Assembly (NCBI GenBank): GCA_965213675.1
Contig: OZ243916.1
Location: forward strand, 2,976,001 to 3,040,000
Source: an uncultured Candidatus Binatia bacterium
Lineage (GTDB): Bacteria > Desulfobacterota > Binatia > UBA9968 > JAJDTQ01
Length of the DNA stretch: 64,000 nt
Reading direction: 5' to 3'
The first letter of the stretch is position 1. Each line of letters opens with the position of its first letter. Positions 5,983 to 57,685 of this stretch are shown here, in pieces. A program made the translations under genes and the position numbers. The notes beneath the pieces were generated by a model. The model did no database searches. It was not told where the DNA came from and was given only the letters and a program-made list of their open reading frames with translations.

Positions 5983-6327
5983 CTACTTCGCCGCGCAGAC
6001 CATGATTTCCACCTGGGTGCCCGGGGTGAGCGCCACGCCGATGGCGGCCCGGGCCGGGAGGTTGTCCTTGTCGATCCAGGCCATCCAGGCCTCGTTCATC
6101 TCGTCCTTGGCGTCGATGTCGGCGAGATAGACGGTGGACGTGAGGATGCGGGACTTGTTGGTGCCAGCGAGGGCGAGGATCTCGTCGATCTTGGCCAGCA
6201 CCTGCTCGGTCTGGCCCTTCGTGGACAGGGACTTGTCGTCGGCCACCAGGCCGGACAGGTATACACGATCGCCGTGCACCACGGCGCGACTGTTCCAGAC
6301 TTGCGGTTTGATGTGTTCGATGCTCAT
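5983..6327 (-). CDS. RidA/YjgF family protein
   Basis: VYLSGLVA, QTEQVLAKID, MNEAW, PARAAIG, VEIMVCA. Confidence 0.9.
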   Translation of the reverse strand: MSIEHIKPQVWNSRAVVHGDRVYLSGLVADDKSLSTKGQTEQVLAKIDEILALAGTNKSRILTSTVYLADIDAKDEMNEAWMAWIDKDNLPARAAIGVALTPGTQVEIMVCAAK

Positions 6328-6486
6328 CGGAAGACAGCCTCCTTGTGAAGAATTTCCAGGACGCTATGTGTTCGCGCTCGCGATGTCAACGCAGAATGCA
6401 CGGTCCTATTTCACGTCACCTCCTCTAATCATCAGTCCGGGCCAAATTAAATTGCCTTCGAGGCGAATATCTGTCATGATCCCCAT

Positions 6487-7695
6487 ATGATTCACCGTTG
6501 TCGCATAAGCAACTTCCAATCCATCCGCGAAGAAGTGCAGCTTGATTTCCGTATTCCCCGCACCTGCCCCAACCTGCCGCGTTTCCGGCAAGCCCATTCG
6601 GGGAATGGCGTTCGCCTTCCCGGCGTGATCGCCTTCGTAGGGCCCAACGGCTCCGGTAAGACGACATTGCTGCGGGCCATAACCGAGTCCATCGAGTTTG
6701 CACATCGTTCGTTCGATCTGGGTGCGTCCCAAAACATCCCTTACTTCCTCCCGTTTCTTTCTTCGGAGGCGAAGGCCGCTCCAACACGGATTGAAATGGA
6801 CTTCGATGCAGCGTGGTTTTCCGCAGATTCCGGTGAACCGTCCCTCTGCCGGTATGCCCTGGAACTAGAGCGAAACGGTTCCGACCTCAACTCTGTGAGG
6901 GTTTACGCTGAAACGCTCCACACGTTCCCCAACGGGCGCCCTCGGCGAATGATAGAGCGGCGTGGCGACGGCCCGGTCTACGTTGCCAGTGGCCTCGGAA
7001 TACGGCGCGGTGACGACCGCCTCTCGTCCGTGCCTGCCAATGCGTCGGTAATCTCGACTCTCGCGCGTCTGGGGGTGGCTCCGTTCCCTTTGATTGCCGA
7101 GGATCTCGGGAACGTTCAAAGGAATCTCATTGGTTCATCACCTTGGCGACCTGATACCGAAACAGTGACGCGTTTCTACGGGGACCGCCCCGCGTTGCTG
7201 GACAAGCTGTCCGATCGGTTGCAGCGTTTCGATCTCGGGATACAGACCTTGAGGATCGCCGTGTTGCCTGACGGCCAGCCGATACTGCTTTGCGATCATC
7301 ATGGGTTGGACGTGCCCGTCGTCATTTCCCAGGAATCCACAGGTACCCGTCATCTCGTGCATGTGTTCCCCCAGCTCGACTTTGCGCTCCAAACCGGTCA
7401 CGTTGCGATCATGGACGCCCTGGATTCCGAGTTTCATACGGAGTTGGTCGCTGAAGTCTTGCGGTGGTTTCAACGTCCCGAGACCAATCCCCACGGCGCC
7501 CAGTTGATCTGCTCCCTACACAACCAGTCCGTCCTCGAAGAGCTTGAAAAGGAGGAACTCTTCATCGTCGAAAAGGGCCAGGATGGCGCCACCCGGGCGT
7601 ACGGTGCGAAGCAGGTGCACGGCCTCCGCCGGACGGAAGACCTCCACAAGCGATATCGTAGTGGCGTTCTGGGTGGACTTCCCACGTTCGGTTGA
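6487..7695 (+). CDS. RloA-like AAA_21 ABC-type ATPase
   Basis: NFQSI, Walker A GPNGSGKT, ESTGT signature, QLICSLH, C-terminal YRSGVLGGLP. Confidence 0.85.
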   Translation: MIHRCRISNFQSIREEVQLDFRIPRTCPNLPRFRQAHSGNGVRLPGVIAFVGPNGSGKTTLLRAITESIEFAHRSFDLGASQNIPYFLPFLSSEAKAAPTRIEMDFDAAWFSADSGEPSLCRYALELERNGSDLNSVRVYAETLHTFPNGRPRRMIERRGDGPVYVASGLGIRRGDDRLSSVPANASVISTLARLGVAPFPLIAEDLGNVQRNLIGSSPWRPDTETVTRFYGDRPALLDKLSDRLQRFDLGIQTLRIAVLPDGQPILLCDHHGLDVPVVISQESTGTRHLVHVFPQLDFALQTGHVAIMDALDSEFHTELVAEVLRWFQRPETNPHGAQLICSLHNQSVLEELEKEELFIVEKGQDGATRAYGAKQVHGLRRTEDLHKRYRSGVLGGLPTFG

Positions 7696-7698
7696 CGC

Positions 7699-8250
7699 AT
7701 GCCGCGCCCTCCGTCCATTCCCTCCCGCAAGCGCATCTTCGTTGGGACCGAGGGCGAGAGCGAACGGGCATTCGCCGCTTGGTTGCAGCAGTTGTGCAAT
7801 CAACTAAAACAGCCCGTGCACCTCGATATCTCCCTCGGCAGCGGCGGGGACTGCCTTCAGATAGTGGAAGATGCAATCGTCCGCTATCGAGAACGTTCGA
7901 AGCGACATGGCCGGTTTGCCGATGGTTGTGTGCTGCTCGACGCCGACCGCTTGCGTCGAGACCAGCGGCATGGTCGCGATCCCGAACCCGTCGCGTGTAG
8001 CGCAGGCCTACGCCTTGTTTTCCTCAAACCAAGAATCGAAGGGCTGTTGGTCCGTCTTCATCCCCGCTGTGAGAACCGTCAGTTGTCGGCCCGTAGTGTC
8101 GACGTAGAACTTCGCAGGCTATGGCCGGAGTATCGGAAACCTGCCTCGTCCCGCGCTTTGGCAGAGCGGTTCGGTCTGGATGATCTGCGGCGCGTTTGCC
8201 GTCGCGACGAGGGCTTGGCGGCGGTGCTGAAAGTGCTCGGTTTGGCATGA
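7699..8250 (+). CDS. RloB-like TOPRIM protein
   Basis: FVGTEGESE, LLDAD, P.IE..L..LH; starts 3 nt after the ATPase. Confidence 0.75.
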   Translation: MPRPPSIPSRKRIFVGTEGESERAFAAWLQQLCNQLKQPVHLDISLGSGGDCLQIVEDAIVRYRERSKRHGRFADGCVLLDADRLRRDQRHGRDPEPVACSAGLRLVFLKPRIEGLLVRLHPRCENRQLSARSVDVELRRLWPEYRKPASSRALAERFGLDDLRRVCRRDEGLAAVLKVLGLA

Positions 8251-20093: not shown

Positions 20094-21074
20094 ATGGAGT
20101 ACCGCCAGTTCGCAACCACCGACTGCAAGGTGTCGCCCATGGGGCTCGGCTGTCTGAGCATGTCGGGCATGTACGGCGCCGGCAACGACGATGAATCCAT
20201 CGCCACACTGCACCGGGCCTTCGACCTCGGCATCAATTTCCTGGACACCTCCGCCAGCTATGGCAACGGCCACAACCACGAGCTCATCGGCAAGGCCATC
20301 AAGGGCCGGCGCGACCAGGTGGTGATCCACTCCAAGTCCGGCAGCCCGCGGTCCGCCGCTGGCGCCGGCCTCGACGGCGGCAGTTCGCCCGAGTACCTCG
20401 TCCAGACCTGCGAGGAGAGCCTCCAGCGGCTGGGCATCGACTGCCTGGACATGTACTGCATGTCCCGCATCGACCCCGCCGTCCCGGTGGAGGAATCGGT
20501 GGGCGGCATGGCGCGCTTGGTGGAGCAAGGCAAGACCCGTTACATCGGACTCTCCGAAGCCAGCGCCGATTCCATCCGCCGCGCCCAAAAGGTCCACCCC
20601 ATCGTCTCGCTCCAGATCGAATACTCACTCTGGTCCCGGGACCCCGAGCAGGGCAACATCGAGGCCTGCCGCGAGTTCGGCATGGGCCTCATGGCCTACT
20701 CGCCCCTGGGCCGCGGCTTCTTCGCCGGCGCCGTCCGCAGTCTCGACCAGCTCGCCGAACGCGACGGCCGCCGCAACCAGCCCCGCCTCCAACCGGGCAA
20801 CATCGAGCGCAACCTGGAACTGCTCGCCCAAGTGGACGAAGTCGCCAGGGAGAGGGGCATCACCACGACCCAGCTTGCCCTGGCTTGGCTCATGGCCCAA
20901 GGCCCCGACATCATCCCCATCCCCAGCAGCAAAAGCCGCAAGCACCTGGAGGAGAACATCAAAGCCGTTGAGGTGGAGTTGACGGAAGAGGACCTGCAGC
21001 GGCTGGACGCAATCCTCCCTTACGGCGCCGCCGCCGGCAACCGGACACGAGACATGAAACGGGTGAACGTGTAG
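20094..21074 (+). CDS. aldo/keto reductase
   Basis: GLGCLSMS, DTSASYG, IGLSE, YSPLGRG. Confidence 0.92.
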   Translation: MEYRQFATTDCKVSPMGLGCLSMSGMYGAGNDDESIATLHRAFDLGINFLDTSASYGNGHNHELIGKAIKGRRDQVVIHSKSGSPRSAAGAGLDGGSSPEYLVQTCEESLQRLGIDCLDMYCMSRIDPAVPVEESVGGMARLVEQGKTRYIGLSEASADSIRRAQKVHPIVSLQIEYSLWSRDPEQGNIEACREFGMGLMAYSPLGRGFFAGAVRSLDQLAERDGRRNQPRLQPGNIERNLELLAQVDEVARERGITTTQLALAWLMAQGPDIIPIPSSKSRKHLEENIKAVEVELTEEDLQRLDAILPYGAAAGNRTRDMKRVNV

Positions 21075-21192
21075 GTGCAAACTTGAAGCGGAATTTGATT
21101 TGCCTTAGTAACCGTAGAGCTTCGATTCTTGGCATTTGCAGGTCGATATAATCAATTTGAGGAAACAGGAGATAGGAGGGGAGGCCTATTGT

Positions 21193-21354
21193 ATGGCGGT
21201 TGAAGGCTCCGAACGACTCAAGAGTCTAGCGGAACGGGAAATTCGGAATGACGTAATGCATTTCGATCCGGACGGTATAGACCCTAATGACACGAATAAA
21301 CTGGAAGAGATCGCCCAATTCTTTCGCGACTTACGGCGTGTAGGAGCAATATAG
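21193..21354 (+). pseudogene. C-terminal remnant of a HEPN (RxxxxH) domain protein
   Basis: REIRNDVMHFDPDGI...FFRDL; no intact N-terminal part. Confidence 0.5.
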
Positions 21355-21798
21355 GTGCGGTCTAGGGCACTGTTGTGTTTTAGAGGACGCGGCAAAACCG
21401 ACACCCTTCTCCCTTACCCCGCTGTTGGCAACCGGGCACGAGATCCGGAAGTATGAAACCAGCCTACTCGAAGGGTTCAGGCCCACCGTCAATCTGAGGG
21501 ATACAGAGCCTGAGGAGAGGCTCGCCGAGGGGCTAAGCGTCCTACAACCGGGACCGTACGCGCGACAGCCTCCGCGGCCGGTCACCGCTCGACCGGCTGT
21601 AGGATCTCCTACGCGAGGCTCCTGCCGGCCAAGAGGGGTCGCCGCCGGCTAAGATCAGAATCGCGAGTTTAACTTGCCTCGGAAAGCTTGGCCCACAATT
21701 CACCCGGGTCGTCGTTGAGACCATGTAGGCAGACGACACAGATGGAGCAAGTGAACGTGTAGAAGGGCGTCGAAGATTACTTGGACTGGACACCGCTA

Positions 21799-22821
21799 TC
21801 AGTCCCGTTCGGGCTGGTTCGTCGACGGCTGTGCACAAACATTGGGTAGGCGGTCATTGATCGCGATTGCCAAGTCACAGCCGAAGTTTCGTGTGTTGTC
21901 GGTGACTACCGTCTGCGCTCCCGTCGCCGCGACATACGCAAGGGTTTCTTCGAAATCAGCGTGGTTCGACAAGGCCACGCGATAGGCCCGATCTGAAAAG
22001 ACCTTCAGCGGATGGTCGTGGTCGACCATGTACGCGCTACAGGTGACCATTGTCCCCTCGACTCGCTCGTTCTTGAAACCGTCGCCCTTTGAGTAGAGCC
22101 GCACATATGAACGCTGTTGCACGGCGTGCCTGCCGTCGGCGGAATCGAGCGGAACCAGTACTCCGGGCGCGAGGCCATGCTGCTGGTATACCTGCACGCG
22201 CCGGATTAGCCGCTCGGTGGCCAGAAGGGGAACGCCCACGTTGTCTCCAAGCACCTGCAAGGTGCGTTCGATGGTTCCGGGGTGGGCGTGGATATGGACT
22301 GAACCGTGCCGTAGTCTCGCACAGACTATTTCAGACAGGCAGGCTTCCGCTTGGTCCTGCGTGTAACCTCGGACGCTACGGGGGTTACCATAAGTACTGT
22401 CAACGACCAGTTCATCGACTTGGATCACGTTGTCGAGGGGCCATCCGAAGTCGCCGGAATATCCAATCCGATGACCGTCTGGCAACTCCAGGGCAACCTG
22501 ACACGATCCAAGCATGTGGTTCGATGGGACTAGATGTAACGTAAAGCCTTTTCCCAGATCATGCGCGACACCGCGTTCGACCGGGTGGAAGTTCTCTCGG
22601 TACTCCAGATCAGCATTGTACTCGGCAATGAGCAAAGCATAGGTCTCAGGGCTTAGCAGGAACTCCTGCAGCCCCTTGCTCTTGTTGAACGCACCCATGT
22701 GGTCTTCATGGACGTGTGTCTGGACACGGAAGCGGCAGCCATTAGCGAAACCGTCGCACACGACCATCTCGCCGAGGCAGACAGCGCCACTCTCCCGCAC
22801 GTCAACCATCGGGTCAGGCAT
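21799..22821 (-). CDS. metallo-beta-lactamase/beta-CASP-like nuclease (SNM1/Artemis-like motifs)
   Basis: THVHEDH, NHMLGS, YSGDF, DSTYG, SNHADF; ATG overlaps the upstream stop (ATGCCTGA). Confidence 0.82.
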   Translation of the reverse strand: MPDPMVDVRESGAVCLGEMVVCDGFANGCRFRVQTHVHEDHMGAFNKSKGLQEFLLSPETYALLIAEYNADLEYRENFHPVERGVAHDLGKGFTLHLVPSNHMLGSCQVALELPDGHRIGYSGDFGWPLDNVIQVDELVVDSTYGNPRSVRGYTQDQAEACLSEIVCARLRHGSVHIHAHPGTIERTLQVLGDNVGVPLLATERLIRRVQVYQQHGLAPGVLVPLDSADGRHAVQQRSYVRLYSKGDGFKNERVEGTMVTCSAYMVDHDHPLKVFSDRAYRVALSNHADFEETLAYVAATGAQTVVTDNTRNFGCDLAIAINDRLPNVCAQPSTNQPERD

Positions 22822-23524
22822 TTGCGACACACTCCGCAACAAAGGCGCGCAGCAGAGATTCAATGTCTTGCTTGCCGACATGCTTCATTGACACGCCAAA
22901 ACCCTCGTCCCCGACCAAGGTGAAAATTTTGGGGCCTAGGCGTCCTGACGCCCCCTTTAGCCCGATTTTCTCCACGCCCGCCGCCAACATTGCATCCCTT
23001 TCTCTTTGTGGAAGCTCCGCAAGAGCTCGCTGTGCACCGCGATCAAGTATGGTGCCGATGAACACGTAACGCCGGTCGATTGCTTGCCGCATGTTGATGA
23101 CTTCCTTCACGCACTCGCTGACCGGCCGTCGTGAGCGTTCGCGCAGTTGCACGACCTGTCGGACCTCTTTGCTATTCAGGCCGTTGGCGAGTATCGCTTC
23201 GGCGACCGTGCGTTGGTCGTCAGCTTTCGGAAGTCGGGTGAGTTCGGTAGCACATGAGAACCCCACGGCATCTCGAGGGCTGCCCCAACTTATCACGTGC
23301 CGGAGGTCGTCCGGGAGGTCAAGAATACGCAGGAAACGTCTAACGCCCGTCGCGTCGATCCAGGTCTCCTTTGCACATTCGTCAAGTGAACTGCCGGCAT
23401 CGCATGCCCGCTGCAGCAATGCACCGACTTCGACCGGCGAAAGTAGACGCTCCTTTCTATGTTTCCCGTAGCCGACCGACATCCGGAGACGTCCAAGTTC
23501 TAGAGGGCTCAGACCTGGGAGCAT
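22814..23524 (-). CDS. ParB/Spo0J-type HTH-domain protein lacking the N-terminal CTPase domain
   Basis: LSPVEVGA...VRRFLRILDLPD...A.L..L...ILANGLNSKEVRQVV aligns by eye with chromosomal ParB LNPIEEAA...VANALRLLSLPD...VMAKGLSTRETEALV. Confidence 0.65.
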   Translation of the reverse strand: MLPGLSPLELGRLRMSVGYGKHRKERLLSPVEVGALLQRACDAGSSLDECAKETWIDATGVRRFLRILDLPDDLRHVISWGSPRDAVGFSCATELTRLPKADDQRTVAEAILANGLNSKEVRQVVQLRERSRRPVSECVKEVINMRQAIDRRYVFIGTILDRGAQRALAELPQRERDAMLAAGVEKIGLKGASGRLGPKIFTLVGDEGFGVSMKHVGKQDIESLLRAFVAECVANA

Positions 23525-23538
23525 GATGGCTACTAATC

Positions 23539-24357
23539 TCAGAGTCCGCGGCCGGTCAGCGCCTCTTCGATGAGCATGACGGTCGCGTCTCCCTGGTTGG
23601 TGCCTTCTTCCCGGGCGACCTGCTGGATGGCACGATGCGTATCCTGTGTCACGGTAGCGACAACCTGGATGACCTTCGAGCCGGACTTCGCGCCCTCTAT
23701 AACCTCTACGACAGACTTGTCGGGATTGTCTCTTCGATCCTCCTCCACCTTCTTGCGTTGGGCTCCTGACATCGATGCCATCTCCTGGGCCAAGACAAGG
23801 GCGTCGTCGGTGTTGACCGCGCCGTCGTCGTCCGTTGCCGAATCCTGCGCACGCAGTGCGGCATTGACATCAACTTGTCCTTCGTCGACCAAGTCCTTCA
23901 GTTGTTTCACCAGCCGGGGGTACTTTACGTAGTCCCGCACTTCCCGATGGGGCAGGCCTGTTGTCTTGACCACGTCCTGAACGCTTCCGTATATGTTGTA
24001 AAGGTAAAGGATTCCATCCTTGAGTTCTTTGCCCGACAGCTTGCGACGTATTAGGTTTTCGGTGATGGAGATTGTCTTGGCCTCAGCCTGCCCGACTTGG
24101 CTGTCAAGCACGGCGGCCGAGATGGTGTCTCGATTCAGCATCTTGTAAGCGAGGAAGCGCCGCTGACCTGTAAGGATCTCCCATTTCCCGGGCTGTTGTT
24201 TCGACTTGCAAACCACGATCGGTTGCAGTAGCCCTTGCGCTTCGATACTTGCGGCGAGATCCTCAACGCCGGCCCCCGGGTTCTCTGTCCGGACCTGTCC
24301 CAGACCAATTACCAAGTCGTCGAGGGGTATTTCGCGGTAATCGATGATTTTTGCCAT
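23539..24357 (-). CDS. ParB/RepB/Spo0J family protein with RHH-like C-terminus
   Basis: LAASIEAQGLLQPIVV, ILTGQRRFLA, TENLIR; GGAG upstream. Confidence 0.85.
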   Translation of the reverse strand: MAKIIDYREIPLDDLVIGLGQVRTENPGAGVEDLAASIEAQGLLQPIVVCKSKQQPGKWEILTGQRRFLAYKMLNRDTISAAVLDSQVGQAEAKTISITENLIRRKLSGKELKDGILYLYNIYGSVQDVVKTTGLPHREVRDYVKYPRLVKQLKDLVDEGQVDVNAALRAQDSATDDDGAVNTDDALVLAQEMASMSGAQRKKVEEDRRDNPDKSVVEVIEGAKSGSKVIQVVATVTQDTHRAIQQVAREEGTNQGDATVMLIEEALTGRGL

Positions 24358-24361
24358 GGCT

Positions 24362-25774
24362 TTAGTCTCCTTCGGTTGCATTGGAAGAGGGCGAAAGGGT
24401 GCCCTCCGCAAGTTCTAAAATCTCCATGAGTTCGCGCTTGGTGAGTCGCCCGCGCACCGTCCCCACAGATTCGATGACCTCGTCGAATAGGGCCTCCTTC
24501 CGGTCGAGCACTGTAGCTATGCGCTCTTCGACCGAGTCTCGGACCAGGAAACGGATGACATGCAGCGGCCCTTCCCGTTCGAAGCGGTGCGCTCGGTAGA
24601 CTGCCTGGAACTCGACTGCAGGATTCCACCAGCGGTCGAACAGGACGGCGTGGGTCGCCTCCCCGAGGTTCAGGCCGACGCCGCCGGCACGAAGGGAAAT
24701 CAATAGTGCCCGCGGTGTTTGGCCTGTCCTGAACCGGTCGATAGAAATCTGTCTCTCGGCTGCCGGCATGGAACCGATCAGAAGGTCGTGGGGTATTCCG
24801 ATCCGCTGGGAAATCTGCCGAAGGGTCTGGACGAACTGCGAAAACACAATCATCCTCGCCGATTGCCCAGCGCCTTCGCAGATGGCTGTGAGGGCCTCCA
24901 GTTTCGATGAAGCACCGCTCTCGACGTCGTAGTTGCAGATCACCTTTAGTCGCGTAATGAGACCGAGCATGGCGGCGTTGGAGTCTTCCTTTTCCCCGCC
25001 GATTTGTGCCGTTCTGGCCGCCCACAGATCGTCGTAGGCGATCCGTTGTGGCGACGAGAGCTCGAGGTACAGATCCTGTACGATGACAGCCGGCAGTTCG
25101 GCCCGCACTTCACGTTTCCGCCGCCGCAGCATCATTGCCTCCAGCCTCTTGTTCAGCCGTGTTGCATCGGGATCCCGACGAATATCGGGGTCCAGGAAGG
25201 CGAGGATTGAGGCGACGTCTTCGCGGTCGTTTTCGAGCGGCGTCGCAGACAGTGCCCACGCACGTTTTCGCGGCAGCAGCCGGCAGGCGAGTGCCGTTGC
25301 GGAGTTCTTGTTCTTGATGCGTTGCGCTTCGTCCAGGATGACGAGATCGAACGTGCCTTTGGGAATCTGATCCAGTCCGTCTTGACGGATCTGTTCGTAA
25401 GAGGAGACGAGAACAGGGATCGGCAGCAGGTAGAATGCCTTCCGGCTGGCGGCCCCGCCCTGAAGCCGTCGCGTCGCCAGTGACGGTGCCCATGTAGTGA
25501 GTTCGGACATCCAGTTCAGCGTCAGCGAGGCCGGGGCCACGATCAAGGCTCGGTCGATCCCCTTTTGTCCATTGAGGAGAAGTGCAAGAGCGATTGCTGC
25601 CTGGACGGTTTTTCCCAATCCCATCTCGTCAGCGAGAAGGGCAGACGTGGACTGGTACAGGAATGCCACTCCCTCCCACTGGTACGTGTGAAGGGCGGCG
25701 GGGAGCATGAGTTGATCTTCGGCCGCGCTCCGGAGATCTTGCACGTCCAGCGTCACTCGAAGACCCACACCCAC
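24362..25774 (-). CDS. SNF2-family helicase/ATPase (compact two-domain form)
   Basis: LLADEMGLGKT, DEAQ, SATPLEN, SLRAGGVGLNL, WWNPAVEFQA..RAHR; start could be 25774, 25756 or 25709. Confidence 0.9.
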   Translation of the reverse strand: MGVGLRVTLDVQDLRSAAEDQLMLPAALHTYQWEGVAFLYQSTSALLADEMGLGKTVQAAIALALLLNGQKGIDRALIVAPASLTLNWMSELTTWAPSLATRRLQGGAASRKAFYLLPIPVLVSSYEQIRQDGLDQIPKGTFDLVILDEAQRIKNKNSATALACRLLPRKRAWALSATPLENDREDVASILAFLDPDIRRDPDATRLNKRLEAMMLRRRKREVRAELPAVIVQDLYLELSSPQRIAYDDLWAARTAQIGGEKEDSNAAMLGLITRLKVICNYDVESGASSKLEALTAICEGAGQSARMIVFSQFVQTLRQISQRIGIPHDLLIGSMPAAERQISIDRFRTGQTPRALLISLRAGGVGLNLGEATHAVLFDRWWNPAVEFQAVYRAHRFEREGPLHVIRFLVRDSVEERIATVLDRKEALFDEVIESVGTVRGRLTKRELMEILELAEGTLSPSSNATEGD

Positions 25775-25891
25775 ACGGCAGCTTCAGCGATATCTCGTTG
25801 GCATGTCTCGATAACCGCCCGCGAAATGTGCTGTGTCATCGAAGTTAGCCTGTGACCAGCGAACTGCAAATACATATGACTTCATTGACCA

Positions 25892-27664
25892 TTAGCTCTC
25901 CTCGCGTCCGGAAAAGCACCACACCTGAGCGGCCGCCTTTGCGAGGTCCCTTGAGCGTTCGGCCACCGCCGTCGGAGTCCACTCGTCATGTATAGCTACA
26001 TCGCGTGTCATTCCAAATGGGCTGGTCTCAAAAACAGCCTTCTTGGCGGCGAAGTTCGCGTTGAAACGGTGCCGTGCATGATTGCCGCTGTCGCCCAGCA
26101 ATGTCAGATTCCCGATTCGAGCAACCCAGTCCCGGAGGTCGTATCCCACCGACGTGAAGCCGGTCCAACCGGACCAGTAGGTCTCCGACTGCGGCAAGAT
26201 GTGTTCCACGGAACATCCTTCATAGTCGAATGCGCGGCCTTCACGTTCTTGCTTGCCGTTGATTCCGAACAACAGTCGTTTGGCTCGCCGGGAATCGGTC
26301 ATCTGAACATCGAGGAGGCGAGAAATAAATCGTGTGTCGTCCATTATCATCAAGTCATCACATTCTTCGAGATCTGTTTTTATGTCGAGGTCAGCGACCT
26401 TGCTACTGGTCGCGATTCTCCTGGCACAATTGGCAAAACCCGGCTCTACTCTGGATGGTTCGAATTTGGCCCCGCAGAAGGAGAGGCGCATCACGAAGGA
26501 AGAAAGGTCGCTGAGGCAGTGATGCGCGGCTTTGGCTACTGCTCTCCGGTACCGATCTTCGGCTTCGATGAACTTCCGTAACAATGCAAACATTAGCGGT
26601 TGCACGACCTTATAACCACCCAATTCCTGAATGAACACAGGCAGATTACGTTTGTGTCGGGTGGTGCCGGACGCCGTGCAGAAGGCATTAAGCAGTTCCT
26701 TGCTTGGGTTTGTGGCAGTGATAGTCCGGAACAGTTCCACGGCAGCGGGACTAGCAAGCTCATGGACTAGCGCGTAAACGTGCTTGTCTCCATCCGGTCG
26801 TCGCCCAGGATTGCGGATCTTCGCCCGAGTATCGCGATAAAAGCGGGTCTTCTGAAGATAGCCGTACCGACATTGAAAGAAACAGCGGAAATACTCTTGG
26901 GATCGCGTAGTGCTTCGAGTAGTTGCGAGGACGCTTTCAAGCTGCTCGTGGACGGTGGCGCGCCGCTCTGAGTCGGCAGGATCTGTGAAGTACGAGTAAA
27001 GGTGGTTTCGAATTAGATCAACGTCATCCAGTCGCTTGCCTCGTCCATTGAGGGCTTCGAAAACGGCATTGGCGTCCTCTGTCTTGGGGACGTAGAGGAC
27101 ACCAATCTCGACCTTCTGCGTCAGGAAATCGAAAAACGTTTGGGTCTCACTCGGCCCCATTGCGCTGACGAACAGGGCCACTTCGTTCCAGGCGGAGGTC
27201 AATTTGCCGTTCGTCCCGATGTCGAGGCCACGGATAATCTGAGTAAACCGCGATCGGTCTTGGCGTGGCGGCTCGACGCGAGGCACATCCCGGGTCGTGT
27301 CGTCGAAGTTGGTGACCGCGTTCTCCGGGCGATCGAACAGTACGCGCAACGCGAGCATTTCACGGCCAGCGTCCGTGTCGCGGTTATTTGCGAACCGCCG
27401 GCCGAATGCAGCAAAGAGTAGGGAGAGGGTGATCATGCGCTGCTGACCGTCGTTGATTTCCCAAACATCCTCACCCGCGACCAGCATAATGGACCCGAGG
27501 AAGTAACTTGCCCGATCTTCGTCCAGGGCTTCTTTGAGGTCGACCAACAACTCGGTGACCTGCTCTACGGTCCAGTCGTAATACCGCTGATGCCACGGCA
27601 CTGTGAACCGTCCCTTGAGGAAGAGCTCGGACACGAGCAATGCCTCTGACGTGATCTGGGTCAT
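25892..27664 (-). CDS. DUF262 + DUF1524 (HNH) protein, GmrSD/SspE-like
   Basis: VPWHQRYYDW, DGQQR, FEALNGRG, SVEHILPQ, IGNLTLL; ATGA-coupled to dndC. Confidence 0.88.
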   Translation of the reverse strand: MTQITSEALLVSELFLKGRFTVPWHQRYYDWTVEQVTELLVDLKEALDEDRASYFLGSIMLVAGEDVWEINDGQQRMITLSLLFAAFGRRFANNRDTDAGREMLALRVLFDRPENAVTNFDDTTRDVPRVEPPRQDRSRFTQIIRGLDIGTNGKLTSAWNEVALFVSAMGPSETQTFFDFLTQKVEIGVLYVPKTEDANAVFEALNGRGKRLDDVDLIRNHLYSYFTDPADSERRATVHEQLESVLATTRSTTRSQEYFRCFFQCRYGYLQKTRFYRDTRAKIRNPGRRPDGDKHVYALVHELASPAAVELFRTITATNPSKELLNAFCTASGTTRHKRNLPVFIQELGGYKVVQPLMFALLRKFIEAEDRYRRAVAKAAHHCLSDLSSFVMRLSFCGAKFEPSRVEPGFANCARRIATSSKVADLDIKTDLEECDDLMIMDDTRFISRLLDVQMTDSRRAKRLLFGINGKQEREGRAFDYEGCSVEHILPQSETYWSGWTGFTSVGYDLRDWVARIGNLTLLGDSGNHARHRFNANFAAKKAVFETSPFGMTRDVAIHDEWTPTAVAERSRDLAKAAAQVWCFSGREES

Positions 27665-28833
27665 AAGGGATGTACGGATTTGAGAAGGGCGAGTCGACCG
27701 TTTTCGGTGATCTCGTCACGCCACCAAACGTCTTCGATGCACTCGATCTCAGCAGGAGTGATAAGCGTGTCACCGACCATCTTCTCTAGTGCCAAAAGTC
27801 GTTCGAGAATTGTCCGGCGTACGGTTAAGCTAAATGGGCCGAATACTTGGGAACCGTCGGACCGGTTCCGAGGGTTACCGTCACGGCGCACGGGAAGTCG
27901 ATTGCTGTCATCCTCCCGCAAGGTGATGAGCCATTCGCGGAAGTCCGACAGGCGTTCCATCTTTGTGGCCTCCTCGTGCCCAGAATCGATCAGGCCCCGG
28001 ATGCTGCGGTCTTTGGCGACCACCGTACATGTCCAACAGCCGAATCGTGGGGAGGAACTGCCACATGATGGTGCGTCGTCTTGTGTCATTACTAGTGGAC
28101 ATTCTCCCCCTCCGGCTTGACGATAGAGAGTGATCAGCCGGCGATGGTTGCCGCCCCATGGTGGGCGGCGTTGCATCAATACCATCCAGACATCCTCATC
28201 GCTGAGGTCGGCAAGCGGGGAGAATATCCGACAGCCCTCCACAGAGTCGTGTTGATTGCTTTTCGTGGCAGACACTTTGCGACGGTCCATGCCTCGCTGC
28301 CGGTTCTGCGACTCGCTTCGCCGGGTCCCGATGAGGAGAATAGCTCCGCCGTGCTCTTTCACGAGGTCTCTTAACAGCCGGCTGGTCGGTCGTATTTTCA
28401 TCCGGTCCGTGCACCACCGAAAATTTCTGGTGGGCGGTATGTATCCACGTCCTATCACACTGACCCAAAATGTCTGATCGACGGCCGGTGTGGTAACGCG
28501 AATGTCAACAGGCATTTCCTGGTCCGCGGCGGCGTCTCCGATCACGTTGAGCGATCCTCGGAGATGCCGAATGACGAGCGGCGACTCGACTAGAGTATCA
28601 TTGCCGACGATGAAGATGGATCGCTGCCGTTGGTCTGTTGGTAGCCCGGCAACTGTTTCCCAAATCATCTGTAGGAGAAGGGTGGAGTCCTTCCCTCCAG
28701 AATAAGCAACAATCCAGGGATGGCTGTGCTTGCGACAGTACTCCCGTCGGAGGGTCTCTGCGATCTTCTTGAGTCGCGTCGGTAGACTCGTCAGGCTGTT
28801 ACTGGTCGAAGTTGAACTCGTTGGCGCTTTCAT
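27661..28833 (-). CDS. dndC: DndC-like PAPS-reductase-family sulfurtransferase (390 aa)
   Basis: PWIVAYSGGKDS PP-loop, NDTLVESP, IGRGYIPP, RWCTDRMKI, GECPL, SPRFGCWTCTVV. Confidence 0.88.
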   Translation of the reverse strand: MKAPTSSTSTSNSLTSLPTRLKKIAETLRREYCRKHSHPWIVAYSGGKDSTLLLQMIWETVAGLPTDQRQRSIFIVGNDTLVESPLVIRHLRGSLNVIGDAAADQEMPVDIRVTTPAVDQTFWVSVIGRGYIPPTRNFRWCTDRMKIRPTSRLLRDLVKEHGGAILLIGTRRSESQNRQRGMDRRKVSATKSNQHDSVEGCRIFSPLADLSDEDVWMVLMQRRPPWGGNHRRLITLYRQAGGGECPLVMTQDDAPSCGSSSPRFGCWTCTVVAKDRSIRGLIDSGHEEATKMERLSDFREWLITLREDDSNRLPVRRDGNPRNRSDGSQVFGPFSLTVRRTILERLLALEKMVGDTLITPAEIECIEDVWWRDEITENGRLALLKSVHPL

Positions 28834-29975
28834 GCCGTAATGCTCCGAAGGGTTGACACAGCGTCATTGACGCGTTGTCCAGCGAAGTCGACCTCTGCCT
28901 CTGTAGTATAGCGACCAACGCTGAATCGTACGGAGGAGAGTGCCAGCGTTTCGATGACACCGAGTCCCTCCAGCACGTGTGATGGCTCAATTGACGCCGC
29001 CGTGCATGCGGAACCTGCCGAGATCGCAATATCGCCAAGAGCAAGCATCAACGACTCGGCTTCCACGCCGGGAAAGGCAATGTTCAAGATGCCTGGGACT
29101 CGCGCGGTAAGGTTGCCGTTGATGACCGCCGCCTCAATCCCGTCCAACCAGCCAAGGAGGCGTCGGTCGATGGCTGCTACCCGCTCCGCATCGCTACTCT
29201 GACAGTCATTGATGAGCCGCGCCGCGGCTCCTAGACCAACGACCTGATGGGTCGCCAGCGTCCCAGCCCGCAGCCCGCCTTCCTGTCCGCCCCCGTGGGT
29301 CTGGGGCACGAGCAAGGGCCGGACGGAGCGGCGCACAAATAGAGCACCGACACCTTTCGGGCCATATATCTTGTGGCCACTCAATGACAGGAGGTCTACT
29401 CCCATGAGCGAGACATCGATCGGGAGTCGTGCGGCGCTCTGTACGGCGTCGACATGAAACAGTGTGCCGTTTTTCCTTACCACGCGCGCTATGCTCGGGA
29501 TATCAGTAACAGTCCCAACCTCATTGTTTACGTGCATAAGAGAGACTAGCGCGGTGTCCGGTCGAAGATCCGCGCGGACGACATCGGGCGTGATCATGCC
29601 ATCGGCGTCAGGTGTGAGGTAGGTCACCGCCACGCCCTGGCCAGAGAGCCAGTCTGCGGTATCGAGTACTGCCTTATGCTCTAGTGAGGAGACGAGGAGA
29701 TGTCGACCGCGTACGCTAGGCGATAGCATTACTCCCTTGATGGCCAAATTGATCGCCTCTGTCGCACCGGAGGTCCAGAAGATTTCATCGGCATCTGCGC
29801 CGATCAACCGCGAGACATGCCCGCGGGCATCCTCAATAGCCTCTGAAGCTGCATGCCCAAAGCGGTGGGTGACGGAATGCGGGTTCCCGAAGACGCCGTC
29901 GGCTGTCAGAAACTTGACCATCGTGTTCGCGACTTCCGGTGCAACAGGGGTCGTCGCGGCGTAGTCTAGGTACAC
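28830..29975 (-). CDS. dndA: cysteine desulfurase (DndA/IscS-like)
   Basis: YLDYAATTP, SGATE, DAVQ, SGHKIYGPKG, SAGSAC; ATGA overlap with dndC; start GTG 29975 uncertain. Confidence 0.85.
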   Translation of the reverse strand: MYLDYAATTPVAPEVANTMVKFLTADGVFGNPHSVTHRFGHAASEAIEDARGHVSRLIGADADEIFWTSGATEAINLAIKGVMLSPSVRGRHLLVSSLEHKAVLDTADWLSGQGVAVTYLTPDADGMITPDVVRADLRPDTALVSLMHVNNEVGTVTDIPSIARVVRKNGTLFHVDAVQSAARLPIDVSLMGVDLLSLSGHKIYGPKGVGALFVRRSVRPLLVPQTHGGGQEGGLRAGTLATHQVVGLGAAARLINDCQSSDAERVAAIDRRLLGWLDGIEAAVINGNLTARVPGILNIAFPGVEAESLMLALGDIAISAGSACTAASIEPSHVLEGLGVIETLALSSVRFSVGRYTTEAEVDFAGQRVNDAVSTLRSITA

Positions 29976-30246
29976 GCCCTCTTCTGGATACGATACCCAC
30001 TCGTCGCCTACGGAAGACAGTTTTCGATGTGTTTTCAATAAGTTACTCGGTCTATGAGGTGCCCCCGTGGCCCTTCCCAACCCTAATAGACTCGGCGGCT
30101 CTACCGTTCTAGTCCGTTTGGAATGAATCCACACATATGGATGTAAATGCAAAACTGATGCCAGTGTCTGTTGGGTCGAGTCTCGCAGATTTCCTTCGGT
30201 GGTTCAACGTATTGTTCTCGACGACCGCTTTACCTGCACTCCCCAC

Positions 30247-31032
30247 TCAGGACATCAACCGCCCGCCGGAAACGTTCAACGCCTCGCCGGTCGTGTGTGA
30301 GGAATCGCTCGACGCCAGGAAGAGGGCGGCATTCGCCACCTCTTCGTGCAGTGCGTGCTTCCGTAGCGGGGTGTGGGCCAGGACGCCCTCCCACAACTCC
30401 TCGAAGGAGACGCCGAGGCCCTTGGCGCGGTCGTGGTACATTTCCCGCAGGTCGGCTTCGTCCATGCCGCCGGGGCAGATGACGTTGGCGCGCACGCCCG
30501 AGGGCCCGGCCTCCTTGGCGATGGTCTGGGTGAGGCCCAGAAGGCCCCACTTGGCAGCGCACAGGGAGCCGCGCAGGGCCATGCCCTCGCGTCCGGCAGT
30601 GCCGGAGATGCTGACGATGCTGCCGCGCTTCTGCTCGATCATCACCGGCAGCGCCGCCTTGCAGCAGAGGAAGATCGCCTTGAGGTTGACGTTGAGGACC
30701 TGATCCCACTCGTCCTCGGTGATCTCGTGCACCTCGACCATGGGCCCGCGGAAGCCGACGCTGTTGACAAGGATGTCCAGCCGGCCCAAGCGGCTCACCA
30801 CGTCGGCCACCATCCCGTCCATCTGCGCCGCGTCCGTGGCATCGGCCGTCATGGCTACGGCCTCGCCGCCCTTCTGTCCGATGGCTTGGACGACCCCGTC
30901 GAGCTCCGGCTCCATCTTCTCGAGATCCACCAGAACGATCTTTGCGCCCTCACCCGCGAAGGTGTGGGCGATGGCCTCGCCGATGCCGCGGGCGCCGCCG
31001 ACGATGACTGCAACCTGGTCTGCCAGTTTCAT
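30247..31032 (-). CDS. SDR family oxidoreductase
   Basis: GGARGIG, NSVG, NVICPG; the YxxxK position reads LCAAK (atypical). Confidence 0.9.
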   Translation of the reverse strand: MKLADQVAVIVGGARGIGEAIAHTFAGEGAKIVLVDLEKMEPELDGVVQAIGQKGGEAVAMTADATDAAQMDGMVADVVSRLGRLDILVNSVGFRGPMVEVHEITEDEWDQVLNVNLKAIFLCCKAALPVMIEQKRGSIVSISGTAGREGMALRGSLCAAKWGLLGLTQTIAKEAGPSGVRANVICPGGMDEADLREMYHDRAKGLGVSFEELWEGVLAHTPLRKHALHEEVANAALFLASSDSSHTTGEALNVSGGRLMS

Positions 31033-56084: not shown

Positions 56085-56248
56085 GGCGTTAAGTGGGGTA
56101 TTTAACACAGTTTTTCAGGATAGGCGAATAAGCGAAACGGGCGAGCGGGCGCCGTCCCCGGAGGTGAGGCGGACGCGCGATTCAGCGGGATGGGATATAA
56201 TGGTGCCGGATGCGGGGGGAACGGACTCGGGCATCGGAGTCGTTGCGT

Positions 56249-57616
56249 ATGTATCGGGCGGATACCATTGCGGCAGTAGCGACGCCCCCGGGCGAAGGGG
56301 GAGTGGCCATGGTGCGTTTGAGCGGACCGGAGGCCAAACGCATCGCACTGGAGGTCCTTGTCGCGAAGGATACCCGTTGGGAATCGCACCGCCTGTACCA
56401 CGGGAGGGTACGGGACCCCGGCAGCGGCGCCGTGGTGGATGAGGTGATGTTTGCTTTCCTTGGGGAACCCCGGAGCTATACGGGCGAGGACAGCGTCGAG
56501 ATCTACTGCCACGGGAGCCCATTCGTGGTGCGGCAAGTGCTCGGAGTGACGCTCGCGCGCGGCGCGCGGCACGCGGAACCGGGGGAGTTCACCAAGAGAG
56601 CCTATTTGAACGGGCGATTGGATTTGCCTCAAGCCGAAGCGGTGTTGGATTTGATCCGCTCACGCACGGACAAGGCAGCCGGGGTCGCCTTGGGCCAGAT
56701 GGAAGGTGGCCTTTCGCAGGAGGTTCAGGCTCTTCGCGAACAATTGGTGGATGTTCTCGTGCAGGTGGAGGCGGCCATTGATTTCCCGGAGGAAGAGATC
56801 GAGCTGCTTCAGCGTGAGGCGTTGGGACGGAAGGTAGCCGGGGTGGCCAAACGGGTTGCCAGCCTTGCCGGCAGTTACGAATGGGGCCGTTTGATTCGTG
56901 AAGGCGTGCGCGTGTGCATCGTGGGCCGGCCCAACGTCGGCAAGTCGAGTTTGCTGAACGCGCTGCTGGGGGAGGATCGAGCCATCGTTACGGCCACGCC
57001 AGGCACGACGCGTGACTTCATCGAGGAGACGGTGAACGTCAACGGCCTGCCCGTGGTGCTGTGGGACACGGCAGGCATCCGGCACGGAACCCAAGGCGTG
57101 GAACAACTTGGCATCGACGTTACCCTCAGGAGGCTGTCCGAGAGTCAGGGGTGCATGCTGGTCCTCGACGGGTCGGCGCCACTTGGCCCCGAGGATATGA
57201 ATGTGATGGATCTCGTGCGCCATATGGCGGGCCTCGTGGTCGTCAACAAGTCCGATCTGGAAGAGTGCATTGAGCGCTCCGCGGTGACCCAGCGTCTGCC
57301 GCACCTGCGCCAAGTGGCGGTGTCGGCATTGACGGGGGACGGGCTGGATGCTTTGAGAGGTGCGTTGCGGGATTGCTTTCTGGAGTCAGTGGAGGAGCCG
57401 GAGGTCGTCGTGACGAACGTGCGTCACAAGGCGGCCCTGGACCGGGCGAAGGAGAGTCTCGTGGACGTGCATCGCGCCATCGCGCAGGGCCTTCCCGCCG
57501 ATATCGTGGCAGTGGATCTGCAAGGGGCGCGTGACAGCCTGGAGGAGATTGTCGGCACCGTCACCAATGAGGATATCCTTGACCGTATCTTCTCGCAGTT
57601 CTGTATCGGCAAGTGA
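56249..57616 (+). CDS. mnmE: tRNA modification GTPase MnmE
   Basis: DTIAAVATP, GRPNVGKS, PGTTRD, DTAG, terminal FCIGK. Confidence 0.97.
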   Translation: MYRADTIAAVATPPGEGGVAMVRLSGPEAKRIALEVLVAKDTRWESHRLYHGRVRDPGSGAVVDEVMFAFLGEPRSYTGEDSVEIYCHGSPFVVRQVLGVTLARGARHAEPGEFTKRAYLNGRLDLPQAEAVLDLIRSRTDKAAGVALGQMEGGLSQEVQALREQLVDVLVQVEAAIDFPEEEIELLQREALGRKVAGVAKRVASLAGSYEWGRLIREGVRVCIVGRPNVGKSSLLNALLGEDRAIVTATPGTTRDFIEETVNVNGLPVVLWDTAGIRHGTQGVEQLGIDVTLRRLSESQGCMLVLDGSAPLGPEDMNVMDLVRHMAGLVVVNKSDLEECIERSAVTQRLPHLRQVAVSALTGDGLDALRGALRDCFLESVEEPEVVVTNVRHKAALDRAKESLVDVHRAIAQGLPADIVAVDLQGARDSLEEIVGTVTNEDILDRIFSQFCIGK

Positions 57617-57685
57617 CGGCCTCGCAAGTTCCGGAAGCGGGTCGCGCAGTTGGTCACAATCGCGCATCAGTCCATTAAGCAGGGG

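Follow-up and report, generated by a model that had tools for sequence, protein, structure and literature searches.

A widely exchanged DndA-DndC cassette without DndD and DndE, joined to a SNF2-ParB-ParB-beta-CASP nuclease module: a candidate phosphorothioate-type modification-restriction system

Introduction

How much machinery a DNA phosphorothioation writer needs, and how it chooses its sites, are questions of the field that are addressed by a cassette of seven genes in a Candidatus Binatia bacterium. The cassette lies on contig OZ243916.1, where seven co-oriented genes on the minus strand span positions 21799-29975 of the 64,000-nt stretch of DNA that was analysed (the window, in which all coordinates are given). 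In the order of their transcription, the genes encode a cysteine desulfurase of the DndA/IscS type, a short DndC, a DndI-like protein with DUF262 and HNH domains, a SNF2-family ATPase, two ParB-like proteins (ParB1 and ParB2) and a metallo-beta-lactamase-fold nuclease of the beta-CASP type. To our knowledge, phosphorothioation is the only natural modification of the DNA backbone.

A reading made from the sequence alone had proposed that these genes form an undescribed phosphorothioate-type system, with the SNF2 protein in the place of the DndD or SspC motor, and had named as its alternative a truncated dnd cluster beside a separate four-gene module. Here we describe the recurrence of the cassette across genomes, the conservation of its proteins, and the loci in which its parts occur in other company. 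The seven gene families are inherited together and exchanged between phyla, DndD and DndE are absent from the loci with the short DndC, and the SNF2-ParB1-ParB2-nuclease genes also adjoin other phosphorothioation gene sets. From this genomic evidence we consider the chances somewhat better than even (a probability of roughly 0.55) that the cassette is a mobile phosphorothioate-type modification-restriction system, composed of a minimal writer and two effectors.

Results

Recurrence and co-inheritance of the seven genes

Relatives of the nuclease, nearly all of ∼340 amino acids (aa), numbered 1204 in a word-indexed protein library (E<=1e-3), and an exhaustive library gave 256 cluster representatives at E<=1e-30. 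A scan anchored on the nuclease, with one genome per species, produced 66 loci; seven of these were fragments or held weak matches only and were left out, and the remaining 59 (L014-L072) were analysed. The 66 loci are labelled Binatia, Acidobacteriota, Latescibacterota, Gemmatimonadota, Rhodothermota, Bacteroidota, Thermodesulfobacteriota, Alpha- and Gammaproteobacteria, Chloroflexota, Planctomycetota, Verrucomicrobiota and Actinomycetota, and the identity of the nuclease across phyla is 58-73%. Many metagenome-assembled genomes with the short cassette (within L014-L062) bear names that we take to be those of marine sponge or coral symbionts. Searches of 72,556 plasmid and 50,697 phage records and of the IMG/VR contigs found no relative of the nuclease.

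The sequence-only reading had staked its proposal on the recurrence of the gene order, and the order does recur. Clustering of the 1091 open reading frames (ORFs) of the 59 loci yielded exactly seven recurrent families, present in 57, 51, 49, 49, 48, 43 and 39 loci, and the next-commonest family occurs in no more than 6 of the 59. A DndC homologue is found in the examined flanks of 52 loci and belongs to the short type in 45 (tblastn, at least 59.9% identity to the DndC of the window). All 45 short-DndC loci contain the DndI-like gene, 43 contain SNF2, ParB1, ParB2 and the nuclease, 38 contain DndA, and none has a match to DndD or DndE. The seven genes are colinear in 35 loci; L035 and L048 hold all seven with the DndA-DndC-DndI-like block inverted relative to SNF2-ParB1-ParB2-nuclease.

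The genes of the two blocks share a history. In 24 loci, the pairwise distances of the seven genes correlate at r 0.62-0.91, and a Mantel comparison of the writer block with the four-gene block gave r = 0.805, a value that none of 2000 permutations attained. Kinship of the hosts does not explain this co-inheritance, as the phyla are intermixed in the DndC tree. DndC is rare in the phylum, with 6 of 401 sampled genomes encoding it, the genome under study included. A second scan, anchored on DndC, found 568 relatives in metagenome contigs; among the best 80, which were inspected, 62 are canonical DndC genes followed by DndD, and two (L108 and L109) are of the short type, both followed by the DndI-like gene, SNF2, ParB1, ParB2 and the nuclease.

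The absence of DndB, DndD, DndE, SspB, SspC and DGQHR proteins from the operon, noted earlier from the translations, was borne out, as none of the seven proteins matched the models of DndB/DGQHR, DndD, DndE, SspB or SspC (PADLOC, NCBIfam); for SspB and SspC the search covered these seven proteins. DndD and DndE were also sought in trans. The genome under study (97.7% complete, 8% contamination) gave no match to DndD at E<=0.001 and none to DndE, and in four other genomes with the short cassette the best DndD match scored 62.6 bits against a cut-off of 246 and DndE was not found. The positive control, G065 (the genome of L060), returned both, at 503 bits for DndD and 91.7 bits for DndE. A DGQHR protein was not found in the genome under study, and the phosphorothioated-DNA-binding restriction endonuclease PT-DNA_restrict matched only HNH fragments below the cut-off there. 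The earlier reading would have been refuted by DndD and DndE in all homologous loci; they occur in 6 of the 59 (L060, L065, L066, L070, L071 and L072), plus one putative DndE match in L039.

Three side observations concern the wider distribution of these genes. Sampled words of the cassette are present in two sequencing runs labelled as viral metagenomes, at fractions of 0.36 and 0.08. On a short metagenome contig, L138:1737-3714, one of the best 80 DndC relatives (47% identity) has a distant GmrSD-like gene (25% identity) immediately after it and not DndD, which may be a different DUF262-type dnd variant. Near the cassette of the congener G003 (L012:18184-19530; L017:12375-13688) there is a second, distant gene of phosphoadenosine phosphosulfate (PAPS) reductase/DndC type (30% identity), and the same neighbourhood encodes a protein with a DGQHR domain and has another ParB-like gene (36% identity); the extra genes may be another ParB-plus-PP-loop pair.

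The desulfurase and the short DndC

The product of the first gene matches Pfam Aminotran_5 (2e-82, residues 60-422 of the long ORF) and the PADLOC models of SspA (5.7e-144) and DndA (5.3e-141), and scores below the NCBIfam equivalog cut-offs of both IscS and DndA. Its translation contains the stretches SGHK and SAGSAC, presumably the site of the pyridoxal phosphate lysine and that of the catalytic cysteine. The second gene product passes the DndC model TIGR03183 (340.3 bits; cut-off 290.4), of which it spans positions 6-350 out of 447, and is assigned by PADLOC to DndC (7e-113) rather than SspD (1e-6); the match to BrxP is weak (1e-10). Alignment with full-length DndCs showed that the short form ends ∼90-110 aa before the canonical C-terminus and that it retains SGGKDS and the cysteines C141, C245, C257, C266 and C269. 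The catalytic and cluster residues are intact and invariant in 18 short DndCs, which have a mean column identity of 69%. In the DndC tree, 42 short DndCs form one clade, with support of 100 in the Shimodaira-Hasegawa-like approximate likelihood ratio test (SH-aLRT) and a stem of 3.03 changes per site. Host phyla are mixed in this tree, which is evidence of horizontal transfer.

The DndI-like protein

The third gene product has the Pfam domains GmrSD_N (3e-25) and GmrSD_C (1e-17), and its PADLOC matches are HEC-06/Orf5 and, confined to the N-terminus, SspE. A profile of 25 orthologues matched DndI (PDB 9JFL, 596 aa) with an E value of 2.3e-27 over positions 9-268 and 474-589, and SspE with 2.3e-15 over the N-terminus only. 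The residues DGQQR (72-76), E487, H488 and N519 are invariant. DndI is a phosphorothioate-sensing ATPase-nickase whose reported mark-sensing residue is Y25, and Salmonella dndI is described as co-transcribed with dndFGH (PMC11662687). The earlier reading described this protein as a GmrSD/SspE-like nuclease; its whole-length match is to DndI, and this component of the cassette is not new because DndI is already published as a phosphorothioate-sensing effector.

Proteins of the SNF2-ParB1-ParB2-nuclease module

The fourth gene product is composed of SNF2-rel_dom (Pfam, 8e-45) and Helicase_C (9e-19), and PADLOC matched it only to the helicase cores of DpdE, ZorD and DrmD. In 26 sequences GLGKT 52-56, D148, Q151, T178, P179, R394, H396 and R397 are invariant.

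Two ParB-like proteins had been read from the sequence, which was right for ParB1, with its ParB N-domain, and only in part for ParB2, which has the DNA-binding domain alone. ParB1 exceeds the cut-offs of Pfam ParB_N (3e-13; 50 bits vs 26.3) and TIGR00180 (62.8 bits vs 58.45), and its profile matches the CTP-binding Noc/ParB structures 7OL9 and 7BNK with E values of 1e-19 to 3e-16 over positions 6-164. Residues G64, Q65, R66, R67, A70, E100, N101 and R104 are invariant; they lie in GQRRxxA and ENLxR, which we take to be the cytidine triphosphate (CTP) motifs. ParB2 matched Pfam HTH_ParB (1e-5) only, with no ParB N-domain. Its AlphaFold2 model (predicted local distance difference test, pLDDT, 92.9) superposes on residues 103-208 of Spo0J 1VZ0 (VIA-align Z 12.1, root-mean-square deviation 2.2 over 105 residues) and on the DNA-binding domain of KorB (Z 9.7); Foldseek gave E values of ∼2e-3 at best, and for the C-domain (148-236) the best VIA-align Z was 6.2 or less.

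The nuclease has no match in Pfam. Its AlphaFold2 model (pLDDT 90.7) was matched by Foldseek to aCPSF1 (3AF6, the top match, 2.8e-16), CPSF73, Artemis, SNM1A, Apollo and RNase J, with E values from 2.8e-16 to 1e-12 and template modelling (TM) scores of 0.61-0.75. H36, H38, D40, H41, H102, D124 and H287, which include the HxHxDH metal site, are invariant in 35 sequences. In NCBIfam the protein weakly matches the ligase-associated DNA damage response exonuclease, at 48 bits against a cut-off of 325. The exhaustive library search, but not the word-index search, uncovered fusions of ParB2 and the nuclease in two of the best 150 nuclease representatives. P0124 (582 aa) aligns over the full length of ParB2 (38% identity, E 3e-48) and, after it, over that of the nuclease, and its cluster has four sequences of 582 aa on five contigs; P0126 is a partial case with the C-terminal part of ParB2. 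Because of these natural fusions, ParB2 is probably the DNA-binding partner of the nuclease.

The module beside other phosphorothioation gene sets

The SNF2-ParB1-ParB2-nuclease module adjoins full-length DndC, DndD and DndE in L060, L065, L070 and L071, and L072 has DndC-DndD-DndE next to ParB1, ParB2 and the nuclease without SNF2. In these variants DndC scores 571 bits (positions 2-447), DndD 503 bits and DndE 91 bits; DndB is present in L065, L066, L070 and L071 (423 bits in L070). The DndI-like gene is absent from all six loci with DndD or DndE (L060, L065, L066, L070, L071 and L072). The order in L060 is DndC-DndD-DndE-SNF2-ParB1-ParB2-nuclease-DndA, so that the DndI-like gene of the short cassette fills the slot held there by DndD-DndE.

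Seven loci lack DndC. L067 has a PAPS reductase instead, L039 and L068 have DndA, L069 has a dnd-associated methyltransferase, and L046 is on a 4-kb contig; neither DndC nor DndA was matched in the examined flanks of L024, L063 and L069. Other recurrent neighbours are the dnd-associated methyltransferase (6 loci), PT-DNA_restrict (5 loci) and a DGQHR protein (4 loci). A search with dnd_assoc_3 in five genomes with the canonical variant found 0 of 5, with the controls equally silent. ParB1, ParB2 and the nuclease, in most cases accompanied by SNF2, thus form a trio that partners phosphorothioation genes and is separable from them.

Two of these loci are unusual. In L067:1905-8260 (Latescibacterota) a 298-aa PAPS reductase, a phospholipase D (PLD)-helicase, an AAA_23 ATPase and a 151-aa protein, which constitute a Pbe-like set, are followed by ParB1-ParB2-nuclease without SNF2. 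The neighbours of L063:4479-9989, a cassette remnant, include a tyrosine integrase and a RepB primase, and a DDE transposase has inserted between its ParB2 and nuclease genes.

Gene layout and the genomic island

All gene junctions given in the sequence-only reading agree with the sequence. The stop and start codons of DndA/DndC and of DndC/DUF262 overlap as ATGA, SNF2 and ParB1 are 4 nt apart, ParB1 and ParB2 14 nt, and ParB2 overlaps the nuclease gene by 8 nt. The starts used in Table 1 that differ from those of the longest ORFs are the most likely ones as judged from the sequence: GTG for DndA, and ATG for ParB1 and for the nuclease. Scans of the cassette for promoters and terminators, the gap between the two blocks included, gave nothing above chance.

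Table 1. Features of the cassette and its island, with positions in the window.
Feature	Position	Strand	Longest ORF	Basis or remark
DndA/IscS-type cysteine desulfurase	28830-29975	-	28830-30152	Pfam, PADLOC; start at 29975
Short DndC, 390 aa	27661-28833	-	27661-28833	TIGR03183, PADLOC, alignment, tree
DndI-like GmrSD-type protein, DUF262 + DUF1524 HNH	25892-27664	-	25892-27664	Pfam, PADLOC, profile vs PDB 9JFL
117-nt gap between the two sub-modules (DUF262 gene to SNF2)	25775-25891			Point of split or inversion in other genomes
Minimal SNF2-family ATPase, 470 aa, no accessory domain	24362-25774	-	24362-25774	Pfam, PADLOC, invariant motifs
ParB1, ParB N-domain + helix-turn-helix (HTH)	23539-24357	-	23539-24411	Pfam, TIGR00180, structure-profile match; start at 24357
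ParB2, HTH domain only + small alpha/beta C-domain	22814-23524	-	22814-23524	Pfam, AlphaFold2, VIA-align
Beta-CASP metallo-beta-lactamase-fold nuclease, 340 aa	21799-22821	-	21799-22881	AlphaFold2, Foldseek, invariant residues; start at 22821
Inserted island, cassette + 724-nt unique spacer	21075-30245			Congener comparison, GC

The cassette is located in a region of low guanine plus cytosine (GC) content, 0.56-0.61 over 20-30 kb compared to ∼0.65 on either side. An aldo/keto reductase gene ends at 21074 and a short-chain dehydrogenase/reductase (SDR) gene begins at about 30232-30246; the two are only 767-1114 nt apart in the congeners G022, G017 and G009, which have no cassette. Because the flanking genes are near-adjacent in these genomes, the ∼9.2 kb between them is an insertion. 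Identical gene order was found in 4 of the 27 congeners searched, at the identical site in G012 and G005 and at other sites in G003 and G002. The spacer that separates the nuclease gene from the aldo/keto reductase gene (21075-21798, 724 nt, GC 0.548) is absent from G012, where only ∼100 nt are found. It matched nothing in related loci, and in its own assembly it matched only itself and contig C18. An Rfam scan of 20500-31000, spacer included, gave no match at E<=0.1.

Contig C18 (44 kb, same assembly) was considered as a second, independent copy of the cassette and rejected, as it is a colinear strain variant of positions 3129-42791 of the window. Its identity to this region is 85-100%, with the SNF2, ParB1 and nuclease proteins at 100% and the flanks at 92-97%, a pattern which suggests that the assembly is a mixture of strains (8% contamination) or that part of the cassette was exchanged recently.

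Elsewhere in the window, a low-GC patch (0.595) at 6487-7695 (+) encodes an AAA_21/AAA_23 ATPase with AbiLi as its top PADLOC match (9.9e-55) and weaker matches to AriA, PtuA and GajA. A further defence gene may be encoded here; PADLOC matched neither of the adjacent ORFs (6134-6490 and 7699-8250). The genes mnmE and mnmG are adjacent at 56210-59584 (+) and the GC skew rises sharply at 54-58 kb, which together suggest that the window is near the replication origin.

Discussion

A proposed minimal writer with two effectors

In the reading we favour, DndA would draw sulfur from cysteine and the short DndC would put it into the DNA backbone, without the ATPase DndD and the DNA binder DndE on which canonical Dnd systems rely. 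Such a minimal writer has a precedent because tdpC alone is reported to be sufficient for phosphorothioate synthesis in the Tdp system (PMC12914056). The DndI-like protein would be the first effector and, by analogy with DndI and SspE, would sense marked DNA via its NTPase domain and nick DNA that is unmarked. The SNF2-ParB1-ParB2-nuclease module would be the second, since it holds the position that dndFGH is described to occupy beside dndI in Salmonella (PMC11662687). Within it, ParB1 may be a DNA clamp gated by NTP, ParB2 may be physically coupled to the beta-CASP nuclease and serve as its adaptor for DNA binding, and SNF2 may be the motor that moves the complex along DNA. The cassette would serve in phage defence. 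More speculatively, the SNF2 and ParB proteins could also find the targets of the writer after the loss of DndD and DndE, and nuclease-resistant sulfur links could stall the beta-CASP enzyme on self DNA.

A bolder proposal, which we regard as tentative and rather doubtful, is that the cassette represents a fifth architecture of DNA phosphorothioation, in which, DndD and DndE having been lost, a nucleotide-gated ParB clamp and a SNF2 motor guide DndA and DndC to their sites and also arm a ParB2-tethered nuclease against unmarked DNA. If true, marking and killing would both depend on one tracking machine, as they do in type I restriction enzymes, and this would be the first ParB nucleotide switch used in immune discrimination of self from non-self.

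Several results weigh against the favoured reading. The Dnd modification apparatus is described as non-functional without DndD and DndE, both of which are called indispensable (PMC10853773). The long stem of the short DndC clade and the lost C-terminal tail mean that the chemistry or substrate of the enzyme may have changed. The mark-sensing Y25 of DndI aligns with an invariant His25 in the DndI-like protein, beside an invariant Trp24. Nearly all loci were found through the nuclease, so that writers lacking the module could have escaped notice in this set, and the check anchored on DndC depends on two loci. SNF2 is missing from 2 of the 45 short-type loci (L029 and L040), and an adjacent DndA from 7. 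The coexistence of the module with DndD and DndE in the canonical variants counts against their replacement by the SNF2 and ParB proteins; the module is not simply a substitute for DndD and DndE, and the earlier idea of SNF2 as a stand-in for the DndD or SspC motor is not supported in that form.

Alternative explanations

The strongest alternative, though an unlikely one, is that two independent systems lie side by side in a defence island, a DndA-DndC-DndI-like set and a SNF2-ParB-ParB-nuclease system that needs no mark. The only sizeable gap (117 nt) does part the blocks, these are mutually inverted in L035 and L048, gene distances correlate slightly better within a block (0.79-0.91) than across the two (0.62-0.85), the module pairs with differing writer sets, and three loci (L024, L063 and L069) have neither DndC nor DndA in the examined flanks. 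Against independence, 52 of the 59 loci have DndC nearby although it was detected in no more than 6 of 401 genomes sampled from the phylum, the Mantel correlation between the blocks is 0.805, and both short-type loci that were found from DndC have the module; of the seven loci without DndC, five have the PAPS reductase (L067), DndA (L039, L068) or the methyltransferase (L069) or are on the short contig (L046). The alternative already named in the sequence-only reading, a separate four-gene module, is therefore right in that the module is modular, but the module is not an unrelated neighbour, being tied to phosphorothioation genes.

Somewhat less probable still, the four genes could maintain or repair phosphorothioated DNA, processing sulfur-linked lesions or breaks in the manner of SNM1/Artemis-type nucleases. 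This would fit the tight link of the module to several kinds of writer, the DNA-repair nucleases Artemis, SNM1A and Apollo among the closest folds, the damage-response exonuclease as the nearest NCBIfam model (far under its cut-off), and the fact that the cassette already has a dedicated effector in the DndI-like protein. It agrees somewhat less well with a low-GC island exchanged between phyla, with the PT-DNA_restrict (5 loci) and DGQHR (4 loci) genes that flank it in several genomes, and with the position of the module, which is that reported for dndFGH beside Salmonella dndI (PMC11662687).

We also consider it improbable that the short DndC no longer makes DNA phosphorothioate, having acquired another sulfur product or become a relic, with the nucleases acting as a type IV system or one that needs no modification. 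Nucleases of the GmrSD family typically require modified DNA. The long stem branch, the missing tail and the absence of DndD and DndE, which the published account deems indispensable (PMC10853773), also favour this reading. A relic, however, would hardly keep its catalytic and cluster residues invariant in 18 sequences at 69% mean column identity; a dedicated desulfurase is retained in 38 of 45 loci, all neighbours are DNA-acting proteins, and a single-enzyme phosphorothioate writer is on record in TdpC (PMC12914056). Housekeeping of a mobile element, with the ParBs for partition and the helicase and nuclease for replication or transfer, is very improbable: ParB1 does pass the ParB partition-protein model, and the cassette of L063 has an integrase and a RepB primase as neighbours and an insertion sequence inside it. 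The island in the window, however, encodes neither ParA nor an integrase, nor proteins of replication or transfer, families of these kinds do not recur in the loci, the nuclease has no relatives in the plasmid, phage and IMG/VR records, and the linkage is to dnd genes.

Comparison with known systems

The closest described relative is the IscS-DndBCDE-DndI system of Salmonella enterica (PMC11662687), in which a desulfurase and DndC are likewise joined by a DUF262-HNH protein of ∼590-596 aa. Salmonella DndI matches the cassette protein end to end at the profile level, with the DGQQR and HNH residues kept, and the reported co-transcription of dndI with dndFGH (translocase-nickase) parallels the SNF2-ParB-ParB-nuclease genes downstream here (PMC11662687). 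The cassette differs in lacking DndB, DndD and DndE, in a DndC without the tail, and in the invariant His at the Y25 position; none of its seven proteins matched the PADLOC models of DndF, DndG or DndH. With canonical DndABCDE plus DndFGH it shares DndA, DndC and the logic of a writer joined to a motor-nuclease effector, but it has no DndD or DndE in cis or, in the genomes searched, in trans, and its effector proteins belong to other families.

The SspABCD-SspE system also has a desulfurase, a PP-loop enzyme and a DUF262-HNH nickase that senses the mark, and PMC10853773 states that the places of DndD and DndE are taken there by a non-ABC ATPase and by a DNA-binding protein of another kind. The PP-loop enzyme of the cassette is of the DndC and not the SspD type, the SspE match of the DndI-like protein is N-terminal only, and none of the seven proteins matched SspB or SspC. 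DndCDEA-PbeABCD offers a four-gene effector cassette that is joined to dnd genes and exchanged between phyla and domains (PMC6459918). Its proteins as described there, however, are a PLD-helicase (PbeA), an SMC-like protein (PbeC) and two of 66 and 152 aa (PbeB and PbeD), with no ParB, SNF2 core or beta-CASP protein; PbeABCD was considered as the identity of the four-gene module and ruled out by this architecture, the Pbe domains being absent from the cassette.

Phosphorothioate writers without DndD and DndE are known from TdpABC and BREX type 4, in which tdpC alone is described to suffice and brxP to work with brxC, respectively (PMC12914056). TdpABC was set beside the cassette by its published description only. 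BREX type 4 differs in that the cassette has no PglZ, BrxC or BrxL and matches BrxP only weakly (1e-10). The Dpd system of 7-deazaguanine modification combines a ParB-superfamily protein (DpdB) with a SNF2 helicase (DpdE), and DpdE and ZorD are the best PADLOC matches of the SNF2 protein. These matches cover only the helicase core, the C-terminal part of proteins of ∼860-1290 aa; moreover, the cassette has no tRNA-guanine transglycosylase (TGT), and ParB1 is of the partition-ParB type and not of the DGQHR type.

PADLOC (2023) has no system that covers the seven genes and no model for ParB2 or the nuclease. A literature search found no paper describing DndC together with SNF2, ParB and a beta-CASP nuclease, in line with the earlier claim that the combination is undescribed, although the supplementary tables of PMC10853773 and PMC12914056 may list such loci. 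PMC12914056 mentions that neighbourhoods in which dndC is found with P-loop and DUF262 genes could be systems not yet described, and the words SNF2 and ParB are absent from its main text. In sponge-associated archaea, genes weakly similar to dndA, dndB and dndC are reported, and the dndB-like ones are said to contain DUF262 and DUF1524 (PMC6790972). The kind of system, phosphorothioate-based modification-restriction, is known; new are the writer without DndD and DndE and its uncharacterised motor-clamp-nuclease partner.

Significance

A widely exchanged cassette with DndA and DndC and without DndD and DndE contradicts the published expectation that Dnd needs both, and its eight kilobases are a compact test object for a minimal writer. 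The identity of 58-73% between nucleases of different phyla marks it as an actively exchanged trait of uncultured lineages. The SNF2-ParB-ParB-beta-CASP module partners several phosphorothioation gene sets across at least a dozen phyla, and if it is an effector, the biology of the ParB nucleotide switch would extend from chromosome segregation and gene silencing to immunity.

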